DNA from: Gammaproteobacteria bacterium
GTDB lineage: Bacteria > Pseudomonadota > Gammaproteobacteria > Eutrophobiales > Eutrophobiaceae
NCBI GenBank assembly: GCA_965116495.1
Contig: OZ220696.1
Coordinates: 384,001 to 448,000 of the forward strand
Length of the DNA stretch: 64,000 nucleotides
Reading direction: 5' to 3'
The position numbers were made by a program, and so were the translations under genes. Position 1 is the stretch's first letter. Each line of letters begins with the position of its first letter. Below are positions 1-12,451 of the stretch, piece after piece. The notes under the pieces are model-generated. The model was not told the DNA's origin and searched no databases. It saw nothing but the letters and a program-made list of their open reading frames with translations.

Positions 1-302
1 GCGGTCGTATCAAACCCGGAAGGGGAGAACCGGAAATCTGGTTCAGTTCGATGAAATCATTCAGCGAGGTGTTGAGTGATAACAATGTCCGCTTACTGAA
101 AATGATCGCGGAACAGAAGCCTTCCAGTATCAAGGAACTGGAAAAACTAAGCGGACGGAGGAGCAGTAACCTGAGTAGAACGTTAAAAACGTTTGAGCGA
201 TATGGCTTGGTTGACCTGCGAAAGGTTCCCGGCAGTCGAGCGATTTTGCCCGTTGCCAAAGCTACCGGCGTCAGGCTGAGCTGTGATTTTGCATCTTATT
301 AA
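1..302 (+). CDS. HTH DNA-binding protein, HVO_A0114-like (possible antitoxin/regulator), 5'-truncated
   Basis: Frame is open upstream of ATG 51 (GRIKPGRGEPEIWFSS-MKSF); HTH SIKELEKLSGRRSSNLSRTLKTFERYGLV. Confidence 0.7.
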   Translation, partial: GRIKPGRGEPEIWFSSMKSFSEVLSDNNVRLLKMIAEQKPSSIKELEKLSGRRSSNLSRTLKTFERYGLVDLRKVPGSRAILPVAKATGVRLSCDFASY

Positions 303-336
303 TTCAAGCCCCAACGCACTGCCCGTACTTGCCCCC

Positions 337-1398
337 CTATGCACATATTTCATTGGTAGCAAGATTTTTCAACAAGCTGTCGTTATCTACGGCTCCTTCA
401 ATTTCACGCAGCCACCTGCGGTACTGGATGGATACCATATCAGTCGGGACGGAAATCTCGTTAATGTCGAATGGGATTTGCGGCGGGTTCTGTGCTTCGA
501 TCACCACAATATCTTCTTCCAGTACACGTTCCTGAAATGCCAGATGGGGATAATCGGGCTCATCCTTGTTGTGATCACGGCAGGTAAACCAGAAACTGCG
601 GCAATGACCCTCGTCAAGGGGTGATGCGCTCATCCATAAGATGGCCCGATTACCTTTCCCGGCTTTGCTGATGAGTTCAAATTCCAGGTTGACGGTAAAC
701 GGCATGGTAATCTGGTAGTTCGTTTTTCCCATCAAAGATACGTCCGGGATAGGCATATCATCAGTCTGGGGGTTGAAATGAAAAACCAATTGACCGTTAT
801 TACGTTCGATTGATGGGGGTGATACTTCCGTCATGTTCGGATCAAACAGTGTATTTGGATGCACGTAGGGAAAATGGGCTAAATCCACAAAGTTCTCCAG
901 GCGCCTGGCTGCGGAAGTTGGCCAGCTATAGGGTTTGCCGATAACTGCCTTGAACGCGTCGTCATCAAATCCGGGACAGGGAGGGATTTCTGTCTCTGCA
1001 TCGGTTTCAAGACGAACCCAGACGAGGTCGTATTTTACTTCAGCAGCATATTTTTGAATTTTTGCGCGGCCCGGTATTTTTAAATCCCGGCACGCAGGAA
1101 TATCGACACATTTTCCGCTACTGTCATAGGCCCAGCCATGATAGCGGCAACGTATTCTGCCGTCTTCTATGAATCCCCTGGACAAGGATGTTGAACGGTG
1201 CGCGCATCGGTCAGCGAAAGCGGAAACACTTCCGTCCAGTTTTGCTATAACCAGGGCCTCCCCCAGCAACTGCACCTGGAGCGGGCCATTACCGGAGGGG
1301 TCTGCCGAATACAATTCCTCCAAGGTACAGACAGGATGCCAGAAGTGACGCCAGGTCTCTTCTTTGATAAACCGGCCATTTGTTTTCGCTTTGGTCAT
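337..1398 (-). CDS. Rieske non-heme iron oxygenase alpha subunit (VanA/NdmA-like O- or N-demethylase type)
   Basis: Rieske motif CAHR...CRYHGW; iron motif ENFVDLAHFPYVH and VLEED. Confidence 0.85.
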   Translation of the reverse strand: MTKAKTNGRFIKEETWRHFWHPVCTLEELYSADPSGNGPLQVQLLGEALVIAKLDGSVSAFADRCAHRSTSLSRGFIEDGRIRCRYHGWAYDSSGKCVDIPACRDLKIPGRAKIQKYAAEVKYDLVWVRLETDAETEIPPCPGFDDDAFKAVIGKPYSWPTSAARRLENFVDLAHFPYVHPNTLFDPNMTEVSPPSIERNNGQLVFHFNPQTDDMPIPDVSLMGKTNYQITMPFTVNLEFELISKAGKGNRAILWMSASPLDEGHCRSFWFTCRDHNKDEPDYPHLAFQERVLEEDIVVIEAQNPPQIPFDINEISVPTDMVSIQYRRWLREIEGAVDNDSLLKNLATNEICA

Positions 1399-1414
1399 GT
1401 AATTCTCCAGTATG

Positions 1415-1469
1415 TGGGGTCAGGTCGCACAATGCACACTATAGCTGTGCATTGTGCGACCTGACCCCA
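1415..1469. repeat. REPIN-like hairpin doublet made of two RAYT-element ends (family A)
   Basis: TGGGGTCAGGTCGCACAATGCACA, 7-nt loop, exact reverse complement; arms identical to ends of element 19442-20467; TGACCCCATTTCCG tandemly repeated at 1462-1489. Confidence 0.9.
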
Positions 1470-1496
1470 TTTCCGTGACCCCATTTCCGTGCGAGG

Positions 1497-2354
1497 TCAG
1501 GTCACAGCGCTTGTGAGCGTATCCTCCAGAACGGTCAATCCCATCCCTGATAACATCGGCAGGTAGTAATTCCGGTGGATCTTGTTGACCTTCGGGGTTA
1601 AAGCGCCGCGCATCCCGAGCCACACCATCATTTCCACCGCTTCGGCGCCACCACGTTCCATCCATTCATCATGAGGGATATCGACCAGGCTTTCCGGATC
1701 GTCTTCGATCCGGTCAAGAAATTCTTCGTCCCAGTCCGAGTTCATATGGCCGAAACGATCGCCGTGCAACTGATGAGAAAGTCCACCGGTGCCCACAACA
1801 ACAACACGCGCATCATCGGGATAGGACTCTACGGCAGTGCGCAGTGCGTGTCCAAGTTTCCATAGCCGGTGCGGCGTCGGTAACGGATGCTGCAGCACGT
1901 TGACCTGGAAGGGCACGGTCCTGACGCTCCAGTCCGGCTCATGATCAAACAATAACGGCAATGGCACCAGGATGCCATGGTCCATCACCATGTCCTGGCA
2001 AATGGTGAGATCAAATTCACTCTCTACCACCAGCGAGTTGGCCAGGTGCCAGGAAAATACGGCATCACCTTTTACCGCCGGCAGCGGACGCGCGCCCCAG
2101 CCTTCATCACCGATAGGGTATTCATCGGCAACACCCATCGCGAACGTCGGGTACTTGTCGAAAAAGAAATCGGTGCCATGATCGTTGTACAGAACGATGG
2201 CGTGAGTTATACCGACGTCCTTTAACCAGGCTTTTGCAGGCTTATAACCGTCAAACAGGGGCTTCCACCCCGGCGTCTCCTGCTGGTTTTGATCGAAAGC
2301 CACGCCAATCGAAGGAACGTGGGACGAACCGATACCCGCAACTAGTCTACCCAT
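1497..2354 (-). CDS. ligB: Class III extradiol dioxygenase beta subunit (protocatechuate 4,5-/gallate dioxygenase-like)
   Basis: SSHVP, YNDH, DEGWG, DHG, GTGGLSHQ motifs; next to alpha subunit. Confidence 0.85.
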   Translation of the reverse strand: MGRLVAGIGSSHVPSIGVAFDQNQQETPGWKPLFDGYKPAKAWLKDVGITHAIVLYNDHGTDFFFDKYPTFAMGVADEYPIGDEGWGARPLPAVKGDAVFSWHLANSLVVESEFDLTICQDMVMDHGILVPLPLLFDHEPDWSVRTVPFQVNVLQHPLPTPHRLWKLGHALRTAVESYPDDARVVVVGTGGLSHQLHGDRFGHMNSDWDEEFLDRIEDDPESLVDIPHDEWMERGGAEAVEMMVWLGMRGALTPKVNKIHRNYYLPMLSGMGLTVLEDTLTSAVT

Positions 2355-2379
2355 TTTTTTGCTCCACTGTGTTTTGCCG

Positions 2380-2748
2380 CTACATATTTTGCCGCAATGG
2401 CACGTTGCGGGTTTTCATGAATTCTTCCACCGATTCGCCACGCTGCTGCGCACCGATGGGGACCAGGCCATCACCGGTCATGGCGCCGACTTTCAACAGC
2501 ATATAGATGTTGCCGCCGCCTTCTTCTATCAGTGCCTTCCAGTCCTTCTCTTTAACCTTTTGCTTCTCCCACGCGGAAAGACCGTAGTTGTTCATGTAGG
2601 CTTCCTCGTCTTTACGATAAGCCTCCCGGTTTTCGGCTTTGTGAAGAGAAAAGGCAAAACTGTTCAGCTTCAGCCCTTGCTGCGACCTTTGCCCGGTGAA
2701 CACACATGTGCCCGGGATATGATCACTGTGACCGGTTTCTCTACTCAT
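2380..2748 (-). CDS. ligA: Extradiol dioxygenase alpha subunit (LigA-like)
   Basis: IPGTCVF...LNSFAFSL..AENREAY..DEEAY...GGNIYMLLK. Confidence 0.85.
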   Translation of the reverse strand: MSRETGHSDHIPGTCVFTGQRSQQGLKLNSFAFSLHKAENREAYRKDEEAYMNNYGLSAWEKQKVKEKDWKALIEEGGGNIYMLLKVGAMTGDGLVPIGAQQRGESVEEFMKTRNVPLRQNM

Positions 2749-2854
2749 TATTCTCTACCTGGTTTGTGAAAAGTTGAAGGGACGCGGACCCCGCCAGACT
2801 GTGCAGTATGCGCATATCGGCACAGGTGATCAATGTACGGGTAGGGGTTCGCAT

Positions 2855-4039
2855 TCAGATCTCCGGCCAGTAATCGAACGGTAGCCCTGTATGTTGCCTG
2901 GCATAGGATATCTGGGAGGTCTCGTCAGACACCAGGTATTCCAGTTCCGCCACCTGCATACGTCGTTCGAAAGGATTGCTGTCGGGGTGGATATGATACT
3001 TGGCCGTGTTCCCGGAGGAAAAACGCTGGCACTGGAGGTTGCGCGCCAGGGCGACGGCGGCATAGCGGTCTAAAATCGTAGCATCGTCTTTTGTAAAGTA
3101 TTCGATCAGCGCGGTGGACAGGACACTCACATCGGCAAAGGCCGCGTTAAGACCCTTGGCGCCGGTCGGCGGGACGATGTGCGAGGCATCACCGCACAGA
3201 AACAAACGGCCATGGGACATGGGTTGGGAGAAAAAACTCCGCAACGGGGTCACGTCTTTCTGGAAGATCTCCCCTCGCACAAGCTCCCAACCGGGTGCGC
3301 CCAGACGCGTATCGAGTTCTTCCCAGATCCGCTCATCGGGCCATTCGTTGAGATCTTCATCCGGTGCGCACTGGAGATAGAGCCGCGATATTTTCGGTGA
3401 ACGCATGCTCAACAGTGCAAAGCCGCGTTCATGATGGCAAAACATCGCTACATCTTTCGACGGAGGCGCTTTGGCCATCACACCGAGCCAGCCGTAGGGA
3501 TAAACATTCTCGTACGTCTTGAGGACGCCGGCCGGGATCGAATGACGCGAAGGACCATGAAAACCATCGGCCCCGATAACGAAATCACAGCTTATTTCCT
3601 TATCCACGCCCTCGTGAGTGTATTTCACTGTCGGGGAATCGCCCTCGATGCCTTCGATTGCCGTGGCGGGCGCCTCATAGAAAACCTTGTGATCTTCCGC
3701 TGCCAGCGCACCCAACAGGTCCTTGGTAAGCTCTGACTGACCGTATATCGTGACGCCAACCCCTATCAGCTTGTCGAAATCGAGAAAGTGATGCTCATTA
3801 TGCAGGCCGATGACCACACCCGGATGATACATGCATTCCTTTTCCAGGCGTTCGCCGACACCTGCCTTGATCATCAGTTCTACCGCGTTCTTCTCCATGA
3901 CACCGGCGCGAATGCGACTTTCGACGTATTCACGGCTTTTCCTTTCCAGGACGACACTTTCGATCCCGCGCTGGCGTAATATCCAGGCCAGGAGCGAACC
4001 TGCCGGGCCGGCGCCCACTATCACGACTGGTACATGCAT
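2855..4039 (-). CDS. pobA: p-hydroxybenzoate 3-hydroxylase family flavin monooxygenase, divergent active site
   Basis: GAGPAG, RIRAGV, DGFHG, GDASHIVPPTGAKGLN; substrate-contact tyrosines appear substituted (see findings). Confidence 0.8.
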   Translation of the reverse strand: MHVPVVIVGAGPAGSLLAWILRQRGIESVVLERKSREYVESRIRAGVMEKNAVELMIKAGVGERLEKECMYHPGVVIGLHNEHHFLDFDKLIGVGVTIYGQSELTKDLLGALAAEDHKVFYEAPATAIEGIEGDSPTVKYTHEGVDKEISCDFVIGADGFHGPSRHSIPAGVLKTYENVYPYGWLGVMAKAPPSKDVAMFCHHERGFALLSMRSPKISRLYLQCAPDEDLNEWPDERIWEELDTRLGAPGWELVRGEIFQKDVTPLRSFFSQPMSHGRLFLCGDASHIVPPTGAKGLNAAFADVSVLSTALIEYFTKDDATILDRYAAVALARNLQCQRFSSGNTAKYHIHPDSNPFERRMQVAELEYLVSDETSQISYARQHTGLPFDYWPEI

Positions 4040-5073
4040 TGTCTTGTCTCCTGGTCCGGATTATATTCGTTTAAGCGGGCAAATACACTGCGGGCGTTGC
4101 CCTCAAAGATGGCCTTTTTCTCGTCTTTGTTCAGTGCATTGTTGTTATCGATGTAACGTTTGGTGTCGTCGAAATAATGGCCGGTTTCAGGGTCTATGCC
4201 GCGTACTGCACCTATCATTTCAGATGCAAACAGGATATTTTTGGAGGGGATTACATCCACCAGCAAATCAATCCCGGGCTGGTGATAAACACAGGTATCA
4301 AAGTAGACATTGTTCATCAACAATTCATCGAGCGGAGGCAGTCCCATCATGTCGGCCAGGCCGCGGAATCGCCCCCAGTGATAGGGTACTGCGCCGCCAC
4401 CATGGGGGATGATGAACCTGGTATCCGGGAAATCCCGGCACACAGTCGATGTCATTAACTGCATAAAGGCAGTAGTGTCGGCGCTCAGGTAGTAGGAACC
4501 GGTGGTCTGAAAGGCATGATTACAAGCCCCGCTCACATGGATCATGGCGGGGACATCCAGTTCGCACATTTTTTCGTATATCGGATACCAGTAGCGATCT
4601 CCCAGGGGAGGGGAGTCCCAGTGGCCGCCCGAAGGGTCCGGATTCAGGTTAAACCCGACAAAGCCGAACTCAAGCACACAACGCTCCAGTTCCAGAACGG
4701 CATTACTTAATCCTGCCCCCGGTGTCTGGGGTAACTGGCAACCTCCGGCGAAGTTATCCGGGTATAACTGCGTGATGCGATAGATTAACTCGTTACAGTG
4801 CTCAGACCAGAATTTACTGGTGCTCTCATTGCCGACATGATGCCCCATCCAGCTGGCGCGCGGCGAAAATATGGTGAGATCGATACCCCGGGTCCGTTGC
4901 AGTTTTAACTGTGCCCCTTCAAGACTCTCCCGCAACTGGTCATCACTGATATCAACGACCCCTTTTTCATGGTGAAAGTGTGGGTTATCGGCCAGTTCCG
5001 CTTTTTGTTGCTCGCGGTACTCGCCCAGCGCAGCCGGCGCCGTGGTGTAGTGCCCGTGGCAATCAATAACCAT
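4021..5073 (-). CDS. ligJ: 4-oxalomesaconate hydratase
   Basis: IDCHGHYTT, FSPRAS, IPHGGGAVPYHWGR, LFASEMIGAVRGIDP. Confidence 0.92.
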   Translation of the reverse strand: MVIDCHGHYTTAPAALGEYREQQKAELADNPHFHHEKGVVDISDDQLRESLEGAQLKLQRTRGIDLTIFSPRASWMGHHVGNESTSKFWSEHCNELIYRITQLYPDNFAGGCQLPQTPGAGLSNAVLELERCVLEFGFVGFNLNPDPSGGHWDSPPLGDRYWYPIYEKMCELDVPAMIHVSGACNHAFQTTGSYYLSADTTAFMQLMTSTVCRDFPDTRFIIPHGGGAVPYHWGRFRGLADMMGLPPLDELLMNNVYFDTCVYHQPGIDLLVDVIPSKNILFASEMIGAVRGIDPETGHYFDDTKRYIDNNNALNKDEKKAIFEGNARSVFARLNEYNPDQETRQCMYQS

Positions 5074-5075
5074 GC

Positions 5076-5804
5076 TCAGTCATTCAGATCGTCCAGTGAA
5101 TCCAGGTAAACCAGGCCGGCTTTTTCCAGGCGCGGGCGCATGTCATAAATATCCAGACCTAAAATGCCGTTCGCCAGTTGTTCACGCTTGCCCGTCTCGT
5201 TTTGTTCCCGGGTCCGGGCAGCAGTCATAACAGGCTCAGCCCAGTGTCTCGGAATCACTACCACGCCGTCATCATCCGCAACTACTACATCACCGGGATT
5301 GACGGCCTGGCCGGCACAGACAATGGGTACGTTTACCGAACCAGGCGTGTTTTTAACCGTGCCCCGGGCAGATACCGCTTTGGACCAAACGGGGAAACTC
5401 ATCTCTTCCAGTATCGCCACATCGCGTACGCCGGCATCTATCACAAGGCCTTTTACACCTCGTGCGCGGGCCGAAGTGGCCAATAAATCACCGAACATTC
5501 CGTCTGTATTGTCCGTGGTGCAGGCAACAACCAGGACATCTCCAGGCCGGCAAAGCTCGATAGCCACATGTAACATCCAGTTGTCGCCAGGCTGGGCCAA
5601 TACCGTAACGGCACTGCCTGCGATCCGGGCGTGTCGGTAAATCGGTCGAATATAAGGTTTTAACAACCCGACCCGTCCCAGCGCTTCATGTACCGTGGCG
5701 ACGCCCAGGGTTCCCAGCGCTTCCACGACCGCGGCATTTGCCCGTTCAATGTTTCGAACTGCTACCGTTCTCATCAGCTTACTTTCCTCATCTTGCGGGG
5801 ACAT
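5076..5804 (-). CDS. ligK: 4-carboxy-4-hydroxy-2-oxoadipate aldolase/oxaloacetate decarboxylase
   Basis: [29 protein letters not shown]; start may be MRTVAV (about 5774). Confidence 0.92.
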
Positions 5805-6861
5805 ACACTACACCCCTGCTCAGCAGGCGTGCAGTGCGCAGCAAACTCACTTTTTCAATTACCGGAAATTCTCCGGAATCATCCACTTGCAGAGCGACGG
5901 AAAACTCTCCGATAGGGTGTTCCACTGATATGGTTTTGACTTCGCCCCCAGGCCGTTCGACCATTCCCTCTACGACCGATCCGGGTAATATGCAAGCGGT
6001 AGCTGCCGACACTGCTCCCAGCACACCGACAGCCGCATGACATTTGTGAGGAATGAATGTTCGTGTGTTGACCAGCCCTCCATTTACCGCAGGCGATGCA
6101 AGGCACATCTTCGGGATGGTCTTGTTTTTCACATCATCCAGGTTCATACCGGGGCCGATTTGAAGTCGAATAGACTCCAGTCTCGCCTTTAAATCCTCAT
6201 TCGCGCTCAGTTCAAGCGGTGACTCATAGCCGCTGATGCCGAAATCAGTTGCCCGCAAAACCACTACAGGCATGCCATTGTCAACGCAGGTCATTTCCAC
6301 ACCGTCTACAATGTCCAGTACCCGGCCCGTGGGCAGGAGGTCTCCACAGATCGAGCCGGCCAGATCCTTATAAGAGCAAAGCACCGGTGCCCCACTGCCC
6401 GGCACGCCATCAATTTGAACTTCTCCCTCGTACTCCGTTTTACCGCCGGGCGTAGACAGTTCCAACTCGCTCAATCTTCCGCTGTTGACCAGGTGCACTG
6501 TAAGCCGGGTTGTCTCTTCATGTGCCGGCACCAGGCCGGCCTCTATGGCAAAGGGCCCGACGCCCGCCAGGATGTTTCCGCAATTTGGCGTGGTATCGAC
6601 CTTGTCCTGACCTACCACGACCTGTACGAACAGGAAGTCGATATCTGCGTCCGGCCGGGAAGAACGGCTCACGATAGCCACCTTGCTGGTAAGGGGATCG
6701 GCGCCGCCCAGGCCGTCTATCTGCCGTTCACCCCGGCCCATGGCATCCAGCAGCACTTCGTTGCGCTGTGCCGGGTCCGCGGGTAAATCTTCAGCAAGGA
6801 AATACAATCCTTTCGAACTCCCGCCGCGTATTTGCATATACGGAATCGCTGACTGTTTCAC
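5788..6861 (-). CDS. ligU: 4-oxalomesaconate tautomerase (PrpF family)
   Basis: [42 protein letters not shown]. Confidence 0.92.
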
Positions 6862-6984
6862 GTTCGCGCTTCTGGTTTGTGTAATAACAGCGTATTTCTA
6901 ATCCGTTCAGCTAACCAATGGGAATTAATTACCCAATCATGCGAAAAAGTAATCCGGCCGTCCTAACCATGCCCCGGTCCATCC

Positions 6985-7035
6985 GGGGACGGACCCCCGC
7001 TGACAACATGCGGGGGCATGCTTAAGTCCGTCCCC
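6985..7035. repeat. GGGGAC-type palindromic repeat (family B) with inner hairpin
   Basis: GGGGACGGAC ... GTCCGTCCCC enclosing CCCCGC/GCGGGG. Confidence 0.7.
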
Positions 7036-7115
7036 AATGCAACATGCCTGTTTCATCTCATGAATAATTGTATAAAAACTGCTATCTTACTGAAAAAACA
7101 TCATGTTGGAACAGA

Positions 7116-8366
7116 GTGAGTAACGATAATTTTCGCATTCCAGGGGTCAGTCTCCGCCATCTCAAATCTGCCCTGTACGTAGCAGAATACAAAAACGTGA
7201 CGCGCGCTGCCAACAAACTGAACCGTTCCCAGACCACCATCACTAAAGCAATCAGTGAACTGGAATTGACACTGGGCACAAGGCTATTCGACCGGGCCGC
7301 AACGGGCATGATGCCCACCGTATATGGCGAAGCCCTGGCTCGCAGGGTAAGGCTGGTGGTTGATGAATTTGACAAGGCCGGGAAATCATACCAGGAATTC
7401 AAACCCGGCGGGCGACACTACCACTCAATACCGGTTTTCTCACTGGATATCAGTTACAAGCGGTTGGCAGCCTTTGTGGCACTTTATGAGAAGCGTAACG
7501 TCACTGCCGCTGCACAAACACTCGGTATAAGCAAAACAGCAGTATATAACTCCATGCGATATCTTGAGGAGTTGCTGGAATTACCTCTTTTCCAGACCGA
7601 ACCCCACGGGGTAACACCGACCGGGCTGGCCACGATTCTGGTTCGACACACCAAACTGGCATTTTCACAAATTCATCAGGCCATCGACGACATCGCCAAC
7701 CTGGATGGAGTGACCCAGGGACGTGTCGTGATCGGAACGCTGCCTTATACCCGAACCTACCTGACACCAGTAGCCATCAACAGGCTGCTGGAAAAATATC
7801 CCCAGATTGATGTGGTCACCCGGGAGGGTCCCTACGATATACTGGAGTCGTCCTTACGAAGTGGTGATATCGACTTCATTGTGGGCGCCATTCGCAATAT
7901 CGAAAACCGTGCTGATATCGTTACCGAAAAACTCTTTGAAGATCGGCTGTCTGTGATTGCGCGCAAGGACCACCCGCTGGCCGGCAGGTCAAGAATCAAC
8001 TTCAAGGACATGCAGGATGCGCAATGGGTGTTGCCCGCAAGGGGAAGCCCCAGCCGGCAATTGTTCGATGAGACGCTGTCACGTCACGACATGCTCGTGC
8101 CGGAGCATGCGGTTGAGACCAGTTCCCTGTCCATGGTAAGAGGTCTCCTGATGGACAGTGACCGGGTAGCCCTGTTGTCGGAACACCAGATTTATTATGA
8201 CATGCAGTTCGGCATACTGGACGTATTGCCGGTCGTCCTGGAGGACACTTATCGCCCCATTGGTCTGACGCTGCGAGCCCATACCCAACCCTCGCCCGCG
8301 GCTGAATTGTTCCTGGGATACCTCAGGGAAGTCTCAGAGGAAATTCACAAACAGGGCACAGCGTAA
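7116..8366 (+). CDS. ligR: LysR-type regulator with two HTH domains (LigR/GalR-like)
   Basis: Two HTH repeats (NVTRAANKLNRSQTTITKAI; NVTAAAQTLGISKTAVYNSM) plus LysR substrate domain; divergent from ligU; GTG 7116 preferred to TTG 7068. Confidence 0.85.
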   Translation: MSNDNFRIPGVSLRHLKSALYVAEYKNVTRAANKLNRSQTTITKAISELELTLGTRLFDRAATGMMPTVYGEALARRVRLVVDEFDKAGKSYQEFKPGGRHYHSIPVFSLDISYKRLAAFVALYEKRNVTAAAQTLGISKTAVYNSMRYLEELLELPLFQTEPHGVTPTGLATILVRHTKLAFSQIHQAIDDIANLDGVTQGRVVIGTLPYTRTYLTPVAINRLLEKYPQIDVVTREGPYDILESSLRSGDIDFIVGAIRNIENRADIVTEKLFEDRLSVIARKDHPLAGRSRINFKDMQDAQWVLPARGSPSRQLFDETLSRHDMLVPEHAVETSSLSMVRGLLMDSDRVALLSEHQIYYDMQFGILDVLPVVLEDTYRPIGLTLRAHTQPSPAAELFLGYLREVSEEIHKQGTA

Positions 8367-8367
8367 C

Positions 8368-8432
8368 AGTGATGGGGTCAGGTCGCACATTGCACATGTA
8401 ATGTGTGCAATGTGCGACCTGACCCCATCACT
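8368..8432. repeat. REPIN-like hairpin doublet (family A)
   Basis: 29-bp perfect inverted repeat AGTGATGGGGTCAGGTCGCACATTGCACA, 7-nt loop, between convergent ligR and ligI. Confidence 0.9.
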
Positions 8433-8442
8433 TGCAATATCA

Positions 8443-9330
8443 TCAACTGGCTTCTTCCGGCCAATACAGGCGCATGGGGTTATCTACCAGCAGTTTTTGT
8501 TGCAGTTCTTCCGTGGGGGCAATACGGGGTATGTAGTCTACCAGTTTACCATCGTCCGGCATGTGAGACTTCATATTGGGGTGAGGCCAGTCGGTTCCCC
8601 ATAACACGCGGTCCGGGAAAGCGTCGATCACACGCCGGGCGAAGGGGATGACATCTTCGTATCCTGGCGGACCAACTGCTGAAATCCGTTCCGGGCAACT
8701 GACCTTCGACCAGAAATTCTCATTCTCAGCCAGCAGTTTGATAAAGAGATTGAACCCTGGGCCATCGACCGGTTGGCTGACATCAGGGCGGCCCATATGA
8801 TCCACCACCACCGTGGCAGGCAGGGATGTGAAGAAATTGTAATACTCTGCCAGGTCCGCTGCCTCAAAATAGATGACGATGTGCCAGCCCAAAGGTACGA
8901 TTCGCTCTGCGATGCCGGCCAGTTCGTCAATGGGCAAGCTGTCCACCAGGCGCTTTACGAAATTGAAGCGTGCGCCGCGTACACCGGCTGCATGCAATTG
9001 TGCCAATTCATCACCAGTTACAGTCGATCGCACCGTGGCGATACCCCGAGCCTTGCCGCGGGAGGATTGCAAGGCATCCGCCAGAGCACGATTGTCTGCG
9101 CCATGGCAGGTGGCCTGCACGATCACATTGCGGGAGAAACCAAGGTGATCACGCAATTGCCATAGTTTGTCCTTGCCTGCATCGCAAGGGGTGTACTTTC
9201 TCTCCGGTGCAAAAGGGAACTCTGCCGCGGGGCCAAATACGTGGCAGTGTGCATCCACGGCGCCATCAGGCACTACGAATCCAGGTGCGCCGGGCGCCGG
9301 GTGAAATGGCAACCAATCGGGATCCATCAT
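8443..9330 (-). CDS. ligI: 2-pyrone-4,6-dicarboxylate lactonase
   Basis: DAHCHVFGP, ERKYTPCDA, VQATCHG, WGTDWPHPNM. Confidence 0.92.
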   Translation of the reverse strand: MMDPDWLPFHPAPGAPGFVVPDGAVDAHCHVFGPAAEFPFAPERKYTPCDAGKDKLWQLRDHLGFSRNVIVQATCHGADNRALADALQSSRGKARGIATVRSTVTGDELAQLHAAGVRGARFNFVKRLVDSLPIDELAGIAERIVPLGWHIVIYFEAADLAEYYNFFTSLPATVVVDHMGRPDVSQPVDGPGFNLFIKLLAENENFWSKVSCPERISAVGPPGYEDVIPFARRVIDAFPDRVLWGTDWPHPNMKSHMPDDGKLVDYIPRIAPTEELQQKLLVDNPMRLYWPEEAS

Positions 9331-10157
9331 TTACCGGCCTTGCTTCCGTCAGTAGTTCCGGCGTTTTGAATCGAGGGAATAGCCGGCAAGCCCTCGGACA
9401 TGAGATTTTTCAGATTTTCCACTGTGGAATCAGTCATCAATGGCTCAATGCCCAGTTCCCGCAATAACACGGCAGACGCCTCCATTTCATGCAGGCGGCG
9501 CTTTGCGTGCACGTCGGAGCCCGTAACCAGGCGCTCCAGCAAGCGTTCATCAGCCTGTGTAATTTCTGTACTGATGTTTTGCCACAACCACTCGGACAAA
9601 CCCGCTTGTTCCGCACCGCGCAAGGCCTCAATAACCACAGCGGCCAGTCCTTTTGTAAATACACTGCGTAACAACTTGCGGGTGGCTGCGTCACCCGCCC
9701 TGGTTCCCAGAGATTCTACCGGCATGCCCAGGGGCAAAAAAGACTTTACAAACCGGTCAGCCCCCGTACCTGCTGCCAGTGCCCGGGTACGTATGCCCCT
9801 GCCCGGCACGATCTCCACCAGGGCAATGTCGGCAAAAGCGATACCGCGTTCGTCTGCTTTCTCAGCCAGTTGGCGTTTCAAGCCCGCAGAACCTGTAGAA
9901 AAATCGGCATAGAGTGCATTTTGGGGTATCTGCTCGAAGGACTGTGACAATGCTGTGGCAGCGTCCGAGGCCGCCGTTAACGCAAGGACCGCATCCACAC
10001 CGGCTACCGCCTCTCCCGGGTCTTCGAAACGGCTTACTCCAGCCGGCGTTATCACGGGTGCGGGATCGTAGGCTTGCACGGAAATACCGGCCGACAGCAG
10101 GTCTGAACTGATGATTGAGCCGGCTTCGCCCAGACCAAAAATGCACACGGTTTTCAT
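9327..10157 (-). CDS. NAD(P)-dependent oxidoreductase, beta-hydroxyacid dehydrogenase-like with DUF1932
   Basis: GLGEAG Rossmann motif, KLLRSVFTKGL, HAKRRLHEM; overlaps ligI start. Confidence 0.8.
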   Translation of the reverse strand: MKTVCIFGLGEAGSIISSDLLSAGISVQAYDPAPVITPAGVSRFEDPGEAVAGVDAVLALTAASDAATALSQSFEQIPQNALYADFSTGSAGLKRQLAEKADERGIAFADIALVEIVPGRGIRTRALAAGTGADRFVKSFLPLGMPVESLGTRAGDAATRKLLRSVFTKGLAAVVIEALRGAEQAGLSEWLWQNISTEITQADERLLERLVTGSDVHAKRRLHEMEASAVLLRELGIEPLMTDSTVENLKNLMSEGLPAIPSIQNAGTTDGSKAGK

Positions 10158-10219
10158 AAATCCTCCAAATTCACCGGAATTTAAAGACTAGGCAGTGCGC
10201 CAGCCCTGCTGTGCCTTCG

Positions 10220-10415
10220 TCAGGAACCCCAGGAATTCATAAGCGCCGCGCTATGGTAAACCGTACCAAACATTAAATGAATGTTCAGTAGTGCCGCCTC
10301 ATGCAGCTCTACCGCCGGAGAGCCAACACACTCTTCCGGAACAACAATATTATAACCACGCATAAAACCGTCCCTATGGTAGAGTCCACGCATACGTTAG
10401 TGGCCACACCCGCTG
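10220..10415 (-). pseudogene. 3' remnant of isochorismatase-family cysteine hydrolase, frameshifted
   Basis: Manual translation AGVATNVCVDSTI / 1-nt deletion / DGFMRGYNIVVPEECVGS...HEAALLNIHLMFGTV; 5' part absent. Confidence 0.75.
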
Positions 10416-10468
10416 ACCTGCCCCCTTGCTGTTTTCAATACATTCGTACGTAAGTTGATGCTATTTGG

Positions 10469-12451
10469 TTAACTCACCAGATCGTCCACTGCTCGTAGAC
10501 CTTCGTCGATGGCTGTGTTACAGAGTGCAACATAACTGGCGTCAGAATTAGCGATCGCAATTCTGCCAAATCGTTTACGGGCTATTTCGTGTGGCCGTTC
10601 TCCCTCTTCATAATCTGGATCAAATAGGGAGTTATACTGACGTGAGTAGCCATGTGGCCAACGGTTTACGGTAAGACCAATAACGTCTTCTCTAACATTA
10701 AAACTTGTTGAATCAAACAGGCTTGCCAACTGTTCCCTGACTTCAACTTCATAATCTTCAAATTCCATTGATAATAATTCTGTCTGTCCCTGACTATGTT
10801 GATCCTGAGGGTTAAGCCCGGAATGCGGATTAACCATCCCACCAATCATGTATATAATCACAGGCTCTTCTGCATTAAGACCCTGTTTATGGTCACCTAA
10901 CGAACGACCATAAGCCAGACATTCATGTAAAATCCGCCCAGGAAAATAAAAACTTCCAGAACCGAGTTCAAGAAGAGGTTTACCGCTACGTAGAAAAACA
11001 CCCACTGAAATGAAGGGCATTTTGACATTGGCTTTGAGAGCATGTTGTTGCTCTACAGGGAGTTCGGGACAAATATGCGGTAAATACATGTGCCATCCGG
11101 CATAGATGCAGTGTTTAGCTTTAACGCGATATGATTCATCTCCACGTACGTAGCTAACTGCTACTCGACTGCCTTTATCGACATTTTTGATACTGGTAAC
11201 TGTTGAATTTAGTCTGATACGAACGTTTGATTCCTCATCATCCAGCTTTGCATAATTCAATCGTGCAGTGGTTAACTCTTCCATAGTTTTTGCTTCAGTA
11301 ACCGCAGGCACCAATTGCCTCACAAGGTTTCTAGTAATAATTGCATTTCCATCAGGTCCGTAGTGACCTTCAAGCGGTGGCATACTGTCAATTTCTTCCT
11401 GGATTTTTCTTCCTTGATCTCCCATCACATGCAATCCAGGTAACCCTGCCCAATGAAATGCTTGGGAAAGTGGCGTGCACTCGGTGGTCAATCCGATCAA
11501 AGCAGATGACTGTCGGGTAAAAATATGATCGGCTGTGTCTTGTGACAAGCCGCAATACTTTGTAACAAAAGTATTGTAACTCATGGAATGAAGAGCAGAT
11601 TTGCGCTCAACTTCTGATAAATCTTCAAACACATCCCTCGTGGACGTGAGGAAGTCATGCAACTCCTTTTTTGCCGCCTCAGGAATTGGCATGTCAGGAA
11701 TATGCTTAACCAAGTTAAATTCGCCATCCTTATTTTTGCGATTCATTGGCTGGATATCGTCAGTCAATGTAACTGCCTTGCCATACTTTTCCTTATCGAA
11801 ACAAATTGAAGGATTTAGATCGAATGCACGTAAACGAAAATCTCCTACTTGTCCTGGCTCGAGACGCTCAAAACTCACACCTATGTCACGCAATAGTTTT
11901 TTTGACTGCTCACTAAAATAGGGAGTTTCCATCATCACACTACCGCCCGGTCCCATGTAGGTTTTCCCATCGTGCGTAAATTCGATACGCTTGGCATGGC
12001 CACCGAAATCATCATGGTTATCAATAATCAGAATCTTTACATTGGGGTCACTGGTTTTTTGTTGGTATGCATAAGCAGCCGTCAAGCCGCTAATACCACC
12101 TCCAACGACGATAAGATCATATTCCTCATTCAGGTCGATTGACTTGCCCCAAGTTTTTCCTGTCCATGCGTGGGCATGAGCGGACTCGAAAGAACCAACA
12201 TGACTACCTCTTAGACCTGTTTTTGCTGGGGGATAATAATCCGGATCTTTCTCAGGAGAATATGAAGGAAGCTGATTCGTAGTGGCAAAAGAAACTCTGG
12301 GAAGAGAACTACCATATGTGGCGAGTGCTGCAGTAGTCATACCTATACCATGTAGCAGATCACGACGGCTTATTAGGCGGTCAAGACCTAACTCTCTTGC
12401 CTTCTTATCGTACTTTTTATATTTCTGCATAGGATTTAGATTTTTTCTCAT
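10469..12451 (-). CDS. Spermidine dehydrogenase (SpdH)-like Tat-exported flavoprotein
   Basis: SRRDLL Tat motif, YYPPAKTGLRGSH, GGGISG, DNHDDFGGHAKR, NRWPHGY, GRIAIANSD; AT-rich; start may be 12430. Confidence 0.8.
   Translation of the reverse strand: MRKNLNPMQKYKKYDKKARELGLDRLISRRDLLHGIGMTTAALATYGSSLPRVSFATTNQLPSYSPEKDPDYYPPAKTGLRGSHVGSFESAHAHAWTGKTWGKSIDLNEEYDLIVVGGGISGLTAAYAYQQKTSDPNVKILIIDNHDDFGGHAKRIEFTHDGKTYMGPGGSVMMETPYFSEQSKKLLRDIGVSFERLEPGQVGDFRLRAFDLNPSICFDKEKYGKAVTLTDDIQPMNRKNKDGEFNLVKHIPDMPIPEAAKKELHDFLTSTRDVFEDLSEVERKSALHSMSYNTFVTKYCGLSQDTADHIFTRQSSALIGLTTECTPLSQAFHWAGLPGLHVMGDQGRKIQEEIDSMPPLEGHYGPDGNAIITRNLVRQLVPAVTEAKTMEELTTARLNYAKLDDEESNVRIRLNSTVTSIKNVDKGSRVAVSYVRGDESYRVKAKHCIYAGWHMYLPHICPELPVEQQHALKANVKMPFISVGVFLRSGKPLLELGSGSFYFPGRILHECLAYGRSLGDHKQGLNAEEPVIIYMIGGMVNPHSGLNPQDQHSQGQTELLSMEFEDYEVEVREQLASLFDSTSFNVREDVIGLTVNRWPHGYSRQYNSLFDPDYEEGERPHEIARKRFGRIAIANSDASYVALCNTAIDEGLRAVDDLVS

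Follow-up and report, generated by a model that had tools for sequence, protein, structure and literature searches.

The window analyzed here is a stretch of 64,000 nucleotides from the genome of a gammaproteobacterium (GCA_965116495.1, contig OZ220696.1, positions 384,001 to 448,000), and it contains, at 337..10157, a gene cluster for the meta-cleavage of an aromatic acid in which a PobA-like flavin hydroxylase adjoins its own two-subunit extradiol dioxygenase, LigAB, and no ligC is present. From its sequence and gene context, we consider it probable (roughly 0.7) that the cluster serves a route in which a 3-X-4-hydroxybenzoate is converted to a 5-X-protocatechuate and then to 2-pyrone-4,6-dicarboxylate (PDC) and HX, where X is a leaving group. 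A halogen is our tentative choice for X. In that case, the PobA-like enzyme would hydroxylate 3-halo-4-hydroxybenzoate, most likely the bromo compound, at C5, and LigAB would cut the 4,5 bond of the resulting 5-haloprotocatechuate to leave an acyl halide at the old C5. This intermediate would close spontaneously to PDC with release of the halide, and LigI, LigU, LigJ, and LigK, judging from their family assignments, would carry PDC to pyruvate and oxaloacetate. Because a 5-X-protocatechuate cut at its 4,5 bond yields an acyl-X and no aldehyde, LigC would be without a substrate. A halogen or methoxy route is favored by the absence of ligC from nearly all carriers of the hydroxylase, by the near-invariant, rebuilt active site of this enzyme, and by its coupling to ligAB, while passage through PDC is favored by the retention of a true LigI and by the failure to find an esterase ortholog.

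The hydroxylase gene (2855..4039, minus strand) encodes a protein that scores above the cut-off of PRK08243 and below that of TIGR02360. A search with this protein returned about 100 clusters at 58-95% identity, followed by a drop to about 52%. The clade set comprises 104 sequences of at least 57% identity, query included, and residues are numbered as in Pseudomonas aeruginosa. Ala199 and Phe201 are found in all of them (104/104 each), Asn346 in 100/101, and His385 in 99/99 of those that cover the site; all 17 more distant matches have Leu, Tyr, Met, and Tyr at the same four positions. The carboxylate clamp (Ser212, Arg214, and Tyr222) and Pro293-Thr294 are intact. Nevertheless, the Tyr201 and Tyr385 network of canonical p-hydroxybenzoate hydroxylase (PHBH), which activates 4-hydroxybenzoate (PMC10770758, cited throughout from excerpts, as are PMC12016517, PMC12314914, and PMC3962378), is missing, with Phe201 and His385 in its place. 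An earlier reading of the letters alone, the first-pass annotation, had rightly called the protein PobA-like and had overlooked both the rebuilt active site and the option of a halogen.

Positions 199 and 385 are known to shift the preference of PHBH toward protocatechuate and 3-substituted substrates, and clade F of the family is defined by Val199, Trp201, Met210, and Phe385 (PMC10770758). Like the clade F enzymes XaPobA, OtPobA, and PkPobA (PDB 8JQO-8JQQ), the window enzyme has the PHBH fold, has lost Tyr201 and Tyr385, and has kept the carboxylate clamp. It differs from them in having Ala, Phe, Leu, and His where clade F has Val/Ile199, Trp201, Met210, and Phe385, in having Thr347 in place of Cys, and in mostly keeping His72. 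Its AlphaFold model (pLDDT 89.6) has 8JQO, the structure of XaPobA, as the best fold match, with 46% identity and a TM score of 0.93, and ungapped alignments to three PHBH structures set the register at Ala/Phe for positions 199/201. By its residues, the enzyme is neither a canonical PHBH nor a known protocatechuate hydroxylase, and it represents a distinct clade. This clade may lie inside one of the lettered clades of PMC10770758; excerpts of the supplement text of that paper do not mention its organisms. No publication on the clade was found in the literature searched, in which coverage of subscription journals is limited.

The named carriers of the clade include the marine genera Amphritea, Tropicibacter, and Shimia, together with a Tara gene. 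Searches of 307 plasmid records, 400 sampled Pseudomonadota, 200 other genomes of the family of G438 (a Rhizobiaceae carrier), and 31 genomes of the order of G766 yielded no member of the clade. A metagenome scan with generic PobA patterns gave 80 loci at 45-52% identity, none of them in the clade.

The dioxygenase pair lies directly downstream of the hydroxylase gene. The alpha subunit gene, ligA (2380..2748, minus strand; PF07746), falls under every ligA equivalog cut-off, including that of the canonical model TIGR02792 (84 vs. 108.6 bits). The product of ligB (1497..2354, minus strand) belongs to subfamily PRK13365, its best model (NF009902, 417.9 bits, cut-off 299), whereas the ligC-linked LigB proteins tested score best on PRK13364. 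It stays below the cut-offs of gallate dioxygenase (NF009904, 343 vs. 412 bits) and of PRK13366 (293 vs. 317 bits). The resemblance of its motifs (FFFD.Y, VLQHP, HQ.HG, and N..WD.EF) to those of gallate dioxygenases, which had been noticed earlier, is borne out: all four are present, as against 0-1 of the four in seven ligC-associated LigB proteins and 2-4 in four fused gallate dioxygenases. In a search of the PDB, DesB (282 bits) scored slightly above LigB (265 bits). His12, His59, His126, His194, and Glu241 are kept, and a quick tree of LigB sequences places the protein in a clade of its own with 30 rows (SH-aLRT 99).

The pair thus shares the beta-domain motifs and the catalytic and iron-binding residues of the gallate dioxygenases DesB and GalA (PMC3962378), but it is split into two genes, is accompanied by LigI, and differs around the substrate. 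The specificity of DesB is set by Glu377, a partner-domain residue to which the C5 hydroxyl of gallate is bound (PMC3962378). The window alpha subunit has Leu, Leu, and Gly at the positions of DesB Glu377, Asn387, and Tyr391, which are all kept in the four gallate dioxygenases; in addition, the Thr13 position is Val and the Thr267 position is Ser. The alpha subunit of another genome, G1111, has Val at the Glu377 position. A hydrophobic residue at the C5 contact would suit a halogen or a methoxy group.

Hydroxylase and dioxygenase genes are closely coupled. The order pobA-ligA-ligB holds in the window, in 10 loci of the same genus, and in G438; of the four carriers from an alphaproteobacterial order, two show the arrangement ligA-ligB-pobA, a third retains just a 3′ part of ligB, and the fourth lacks both genes nearby. 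In total, a complete ligAB directly adjoins the clade pobA in 14 of 16 genomes. In one relative, the 3′ part of ligB is partially duplicated in the space separating ligB from the next gene, which encodes a Rieske oxygenase (L017:12880-13296).

The lack of ligC, first noted for the cluster, extends to the whole host genome (4.34 Mb, one contig, 99.5% complete). The query was a LigC from a Paraburkholderia ligABC cluster, a PmdC-type ortholog (PDB 9AZO, E 4e-122); in the host genome, which has 7 Gfo/Idh/MocA family matches, it found only partial matches at 24-33% identity, and consequently no ligC that could be co-regulated from elsewhere. The same query found orthologs at 53-58% identity in 6 of 23 genomes of the genus. 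Five of these ligC genes are clustered with another ligAB, one of canonical type; the sixth shares a short contig with ligJ and ligI. A window-type PobA, at 94-100% identity, is present in 11 genomes of the genus, and only one of them, G005, has ligC as well. In G005, pobA-ligA-ligB-Rieske is kept without lower-pathway genes, and ligC belongs to a separate canonical ligAB-K-U-J-I-C cluster; this genome also has a PobA with Tyr201 and Tyr385. Within the genus, ligC occurs in 0/9 genomes with the clade PobA only vs. 5/8 with a canonical PobA, counts that come from kin and are not independent. Outside the genus, the carriers are G438 and four genomes of one alphaproteobacterial order (4 of 78 searched), assemblies of unstated completeness in which no ligC was found. 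The expected co-occurrence of this hydroxylase clade with the absence of ligC is therefore seen in 15 of 16 carriers, with G005 as the exception.

Other genes that might process protocatechuate in the host were considered and rejected. For a second canonical ligB, the six other PF02900 matches are distant, the best being 29% identical to the window LigB; the match at 3507269 is in what we take, from its sequence, to be a homoprotocatechuate-type cluster. PcaGH was not found either; of the two PF00775 matches, one resembles a catechol/hydroxyquinol-1,2-dioxygenase gene and the other is an unrelated gene of 246 amino acids. Separately, plasmid pBHB of Comamonas 7D-2 has a 5′-truncated canonical pobA followed by ligA, ligB, a transporter gene, and bhbA (L102:16738-23130), with no ligC in 36.8 kb.

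The lower pathway is complete, and its enzymes are clear orthologs of those of protocatechuate 4,5-cleavage. All four genes are on the minus strand: ligJ, for 4-oxalomesaconate hydratase (4021..5073; PDB 6DXQ, the solved enzyme of Sphingobium SYK-6, E 1.4e-147); ligK, for 4-carboxy-4-hydroxy-2-oxoadipate aldolase (5076..5804; TIGR02798, 368 bits, cut-off 304.5); ligU, for 4-oxalomesaconate tautomerase (5788..6861; NF033377, 494 bits, cut-off 440); and ligI, for PDC hydrolase (8443..9330; PDB 4D8L, likewise from SYK-6, E 1e-106). In this respect, the cluster matches the protocatechuate 4,5 pathway of Sphingobium SYK-6, of Novosphingobium (ligABC-I-U-J-K-R), and of Comamonas (pmd), with which it also shares a LigR-type regulator and a two-subunit LigAB; it differs in lacking LigC, in having its LigB in PRK13365, and in its non-canonical PHBH as entry enzyme. 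The window LigI is 66-73% identical to ligI products from ligC-bearing clusters, and a true LigI is kept in the window, in 9/10 genus loci, and in G438. By contrast, no ligI lies within 7 kb at any of the four gallate dioxygenase loci.

If X were a methoxy group, cleavage would give the ester 4-carboxy-2-hydroxy-6-methoxy-6-oxohexa-2,4-dienoate (CHMOD); its half-life for cyclization to PDC is about 70 min, and a dedicated pathway for it relies on an esterase (PMC12314914). Esterases from look-alike clusters, in which they adjoin related LigAB pairs, served as queries instead of that of Pseudomonas sp. NGC7, and they have no ortholog in the host genome (best match 27-28%) or in the 10 genus loci. 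The nearest match to them is a hydrolase of 30-33% identity in G438, about 6 kb away from the cluster.

For a halogen as X, the closest precedent is the bhb1 operon of Pigmentiphaga kullae H8, phbh1-pcaA-pcaB-orf404, of which phbh1-pcaA-pcaB degrades 3-bromo-4-hydroxybenzoate through bromoprotocatechuate (Br-PCA) (PMC12016517). According to the excerpts, this operon has the same order of hydroxylase, alpha, and beta genes, is under LysR control, names no ligC, and has a non-canonical PHBH that makes a 5-substituted protocatechuate, an activity that in the window is predicted from residues and context (PMC12016517). The H8 enzymes, however, have been tied to clade E/F (PMC10770758), from which the window clade, with Ala199, Phe201, Asn346, and His385, is set apart by description. 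The window cluster further adds the whole lower pathway and a Rieske gene of the Ndm type. For the H8 enzymes, Val199 and Phe384 have reportedly been described by Chen in 2022. Perhaps the window clade, if it acts on halogenated substrates, could even debrominate 3,5-dibromo-4-hydroxybenzoate oxidatively. The host genome has three BhbA-like reductive dehalogenase genes, with 39-44% identity. One of them (44%) stands in a co-oriented group with an HpaB-like monooxygenase gene and a catechol/hydroxyquinol 1,2-dioxygenase-like gene (L122:4060-10845; about 1462000-1468800 on the host contig), a locus possibly involved in halophenol catabolism.

Several observations weigh against this assignment. 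Reductive dehalogenase matches occur in 22/23 genomes of the genus and, consequently, do not discriminate. The immediate cyclization of 5-haloprotocatechuate cleavage products with halide release was reportedly described by Kersten, Chapman and Dagley in 1985, and no statement of halide release to PDC was found in the literature searched. The clade is distant from clade F in identity and in its four defining residues, and a gapped HMMER alignment to XaPobA gives a different register at positions 199/201, with Val/Met. Its assignment to marine habitats comes from only about 12 carrier names. Some copies are damaged: pobA of the alphaproteobacterial carrier G1083 has an in-frame TGA, and G438 has frameshifts in ligB and ligU. 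Moreover, the four alphaproteobacterial carriers have only LigI-like genes of 48-51% identity, located far from the module. The remaining points of this kind are found in the gene neighborhoods of relatives. A Roseomonas LigAB (55% identity) with the same Leu/Leu/Gly triad is accompanied by an esterase, a Rieske oxygenase, a VanB-type reductase, and a GntR regulator; the G438 cluster has a short-chain dehydrogenase/reductase (SDR) of the coniferyl-alcohol-dehydrogenase subfamily and an aldehyde dehydrogenase; and a VanA-like gene lies at a distance of about 1.3 kb in G1063.

These neighborhoods speak for the rival that survives best, in which X is a methoxy group. The PobA-like enzyme would then be a vanillate 5-hydroxylase producing 3-O-methylgallate, LigAB would convert this to CHMOD or PDC and methanol, and LigI would continue from there; the Rieske enzyme could supply syringate or veratrate. 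The conversion of 3-O-methylgallate to PDC without LigC is established (excerpts of PMC12710314 and PMC12314914). For instance, MgaAB-MgaC of Pseudomonas sp. NGC7 combines a split, gallate-dioxygenase-like pair for a C5-substituted protocatechuate with the absence of LigC, as in the window; the likeness is by description, and NGC7 has an esterase and no LigI, whereas the window has LigI, no esterase, and a flavin hydroxylase as entry enzyme (PMC12314914). In S. fuliginis, a PRK13365 pair adjoins genes for a hydrolase and an NTF2 protein, which together make up the set reported for mgaABCD. In G890, a related LigAB is flanked by an acyl-CoA synthetase on one side and a two-component hydroxylase of the HpaB type on the other, and the 20 kb contain no ligC (L132:7872-12821); this may be the same principle built on a different hydroxylase family. 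In addition, Ala199 is roomier than Val199, and His385 or Asn346 could bind the methoxy oxygen or serve as a base. Nevertheless, the CHMOD esterase is missing as described above, and the cluster has no VanAB-type O-demethylase; its Rieske protein is Ndm-like and shares just 21% identity with the Roseomonas counterpart. Soil- and plant-associated collections, in which vanillate degraders are common, yielded no clade member, and no natural vanillate 5-hydroxylase was found in the literature searched. On balance, the methoxy variant is less likely than the halogen one but a serious contender, and it is the better supported part of an earlier proposal, that of a route through a trihydroxybenzoate. 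Of this proposal, the avoidance of 4-carboxy-2-hydroxymuconate-6-semialdehyde (CHMS) by means of a 3,4,5-trisubstituted benzoate is upheld as most likely, while gallate itself fares poorly.

Indeed, a gallate route is improbable. Here, the PobA-like enzyme would be a second, convergent protocatechuate 5-hydroxylase, and LigAB a split gallate dioxygenase yielding oxalomesaconate. The beta motifs are common to gallate dioxygenases, the best structural match is the protocatechuate hydroxylase XaPobA, and, as neither PcaGH nor LigC was found in the genome, any protocatechuate would need another sink. However, DesB Glu377, Asn387, Tyr391, and Thr13 are replaced, the LigB score is below the gallate dioxygenase cut-off, and V199A abolishes the activity of XaPobA on protocatechuate (PMC10770758). 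LigI would also be superfluous, since X = OH gives oxalomesaconate, in line with the absence of ligI near the four gallate dioxygenase genes.

Another 3-substituent (nitro, amino, sulfo, methyl, or carboxy) or an aminobenzoate as substrate is about as improbable. The loss of Tyr201 and Tyr385 and the polar His385 and Asn346 do not fix the substituent, and in G1109 the clade gene has no ligAB and faces three tandem genes that we presume, from their sequence, to be UbiD-like, together with an SDR gene (L152:493-7735). Yet, following pathway reasoning, methyl and carboxy products, being unable to lactonize to PDC, would depend on a hydrolase or decarboxylase that the cluster does not encode, and no gene context hints at nitro, amino, or sulfo groups.

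The DUF1932 gene next to ligI (9327..10157, minus strand; PF09130 and PF03446) encodes an NAD(P)-binding oxidoreductase whose PDB relatives are uncharacterized, and the first-pass annotation had suggested it as a replacement for LigC. In the genus, it occurs in 7/23 genomes, all of them ligC-less carriers, and in 0/6 genomes with ligC; moreover, a PF09130 gene is found at another genomic site in each of the four ligC-less alphaproteobacterial carriers. However, the module occurs without ligC and without DUF1932 in G001, G002, and G019 (94-100% complete) and in G438. DUF1932 also stands beside a LigC ortholog in Azospirillum, and in Burkholderia pyrrocinia its neighbor is a gallate dioxygenase, whose pathway does not generate CHMS. 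The suggestion was consequently dropped: DUF1932 goes with the lower pathway of the LigR/GalR type rather than with ligC loss, and it is dispensable. The ligCBAJ operon of Novosphingobium also includes an NAD(P)-dependent oxidoreductase of no known role, possibly a relative of DUF1932 (PMC12710314). It is thus very improbable that protocatechuate undergoes ordinary 4,5-cleavage and that CHMS is oxidized by DUF1932 or by one of the other aldehyde dehydrogenases of the host genome, also because the hydroxylase lacks both tyrosines required for 4-hydroxybenzoate.

The last gene of the run (337..1398, minus strand; PF00355 and PF19112) encodes a Rieske oxygenase of the methylxanthine N-demethylase type. 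Its best PDB matches are NdmB (E 3e-90) and NdmA (4e-88), whereas DdmC reaches only E 1e-13, so that a previous VanA/DdmC-like label does not hold. The context of an ndm operon is missing as well: it is a single gene behind ligB, with no partner demethylases and no NdmD reductase in the cluster. The best plasmid matches are 44-46% identical, and a protein search gave only four clusters at 74% identity or more. The gene directly follows ligB in all 11 carriers of the genus (the window and 10/10 loci), while G438 has no match at E<=1e-30 and the four alphaproteobacterial loci have no Rieske gene beside the clade PobA; a paralog of 62% identity is found in a genome without this PobA. The Rieske gene is thus a genus-specific accessory and not part of the core of the module. 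As a guess, its product may demethylate an upstream substrate. The Rieske family is expanded in the host genus: the host contig has at least 8 further paralogs of 28-32% identity at several sites between 1931900 and 2720700, clustered near 2241500-2262900.

Regarding the layout, all ten open reading frames (ORFs) of the cluster are confirmed as genes with matching families, and the gene set, order, and co-orientation read from the letters alone agree with the ORF calls and the family profile matches. The minus-strand run ligU-ligK-ligJ-pobA-ligA-ligB-Rieske has successive gaps of -17, 2, -19, 106, 25, and 98 nt. Divergent from ligU is the gene of a LigR/GalR-type LysR regulator (7068..8366, plus strand; start provisional) with two helix-turn-helix stretches, and the DUF1932-ligI pair is oriented toward its end. 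The regulator is 35-36% identical to LysR proteins whose genes adjoin DUF1932 in two other loci (L105 and L135). The LigR box TT-N-GC-N6-TTAT has no match in positions 1-11000 of the window, and scans of the cluster for promoters and terminators gave only chance-level results. Metatranscriptome contigs from two runs of one study cover most of the genes in part, mostly with 90-99% likeness, but their shares are small (0.07-0.10) and, without a silent-stretch control, do not demonstrate transcription. In one relative, an unrelated gene of 502 amino acids separates ligJ from pobA (L012:7798-9306), an insertion that marks a seam between the lower pathway and the pobA-ligAB-Rieske module.

The intergenic regions contain repeats. 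Two copies of a 56-nt perfect hairpin, with stems of 24 and 29 bp and a 7-nt loop, lie in the ligB/Rieske gap (1415-1470) and in the ligR/ligI gap (8368-8432). About 76 matching sites are found genome-wide; the hairpin resembles a repeat of the repetitive extragenic palindromic (REP) type, and several relatives lack it in that gap. A second short repeat, with about 23 genome sites and a very high contig depth in DNA runs, is located in the ligU-ligR divergent region (6985-7035). Outside the window, L001:12009-19665 holds what we presume to be a fused oxidoreductase/selenide-water-dikinase-like gene, a glycosyltransferase gene, a formylglycine-enzyme-domain gene, and selA; if these labels are right, it looks like a selenoneine cluster of the senABC type.

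In summary, the lower pathway of this cluster is known and its chemistry has precedents, and what is new is the uncharacterized hydroxylase clade and the dioxygenase subfamily. It is fairly probable that this widespread marine PHBH clade, with its own LigAB, represents an undescribed natural route for naturally halogenated 4-hydroxybenzoates or else a vanillate 5-hydroxylase, which would be the first natural one from bacteria. With a halogen as X, the cluster would identify genes by which natural marine bromophenolics are consumed aerobically, dehalogenation being a free by-product of ring cleavage. Alternatively, if X is a methoxy group, a natural vanillate hydroxylase would let guaiacyl aromatics reach PDC with neither demethylation nor LigC. 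Lignin aromatics would then have a short path to this polymer precursor, one that engineered PobA variants approach for protocatechuate only. With either X, the clade would provide a third active-site solution for PHBH, a textbook enzyme.

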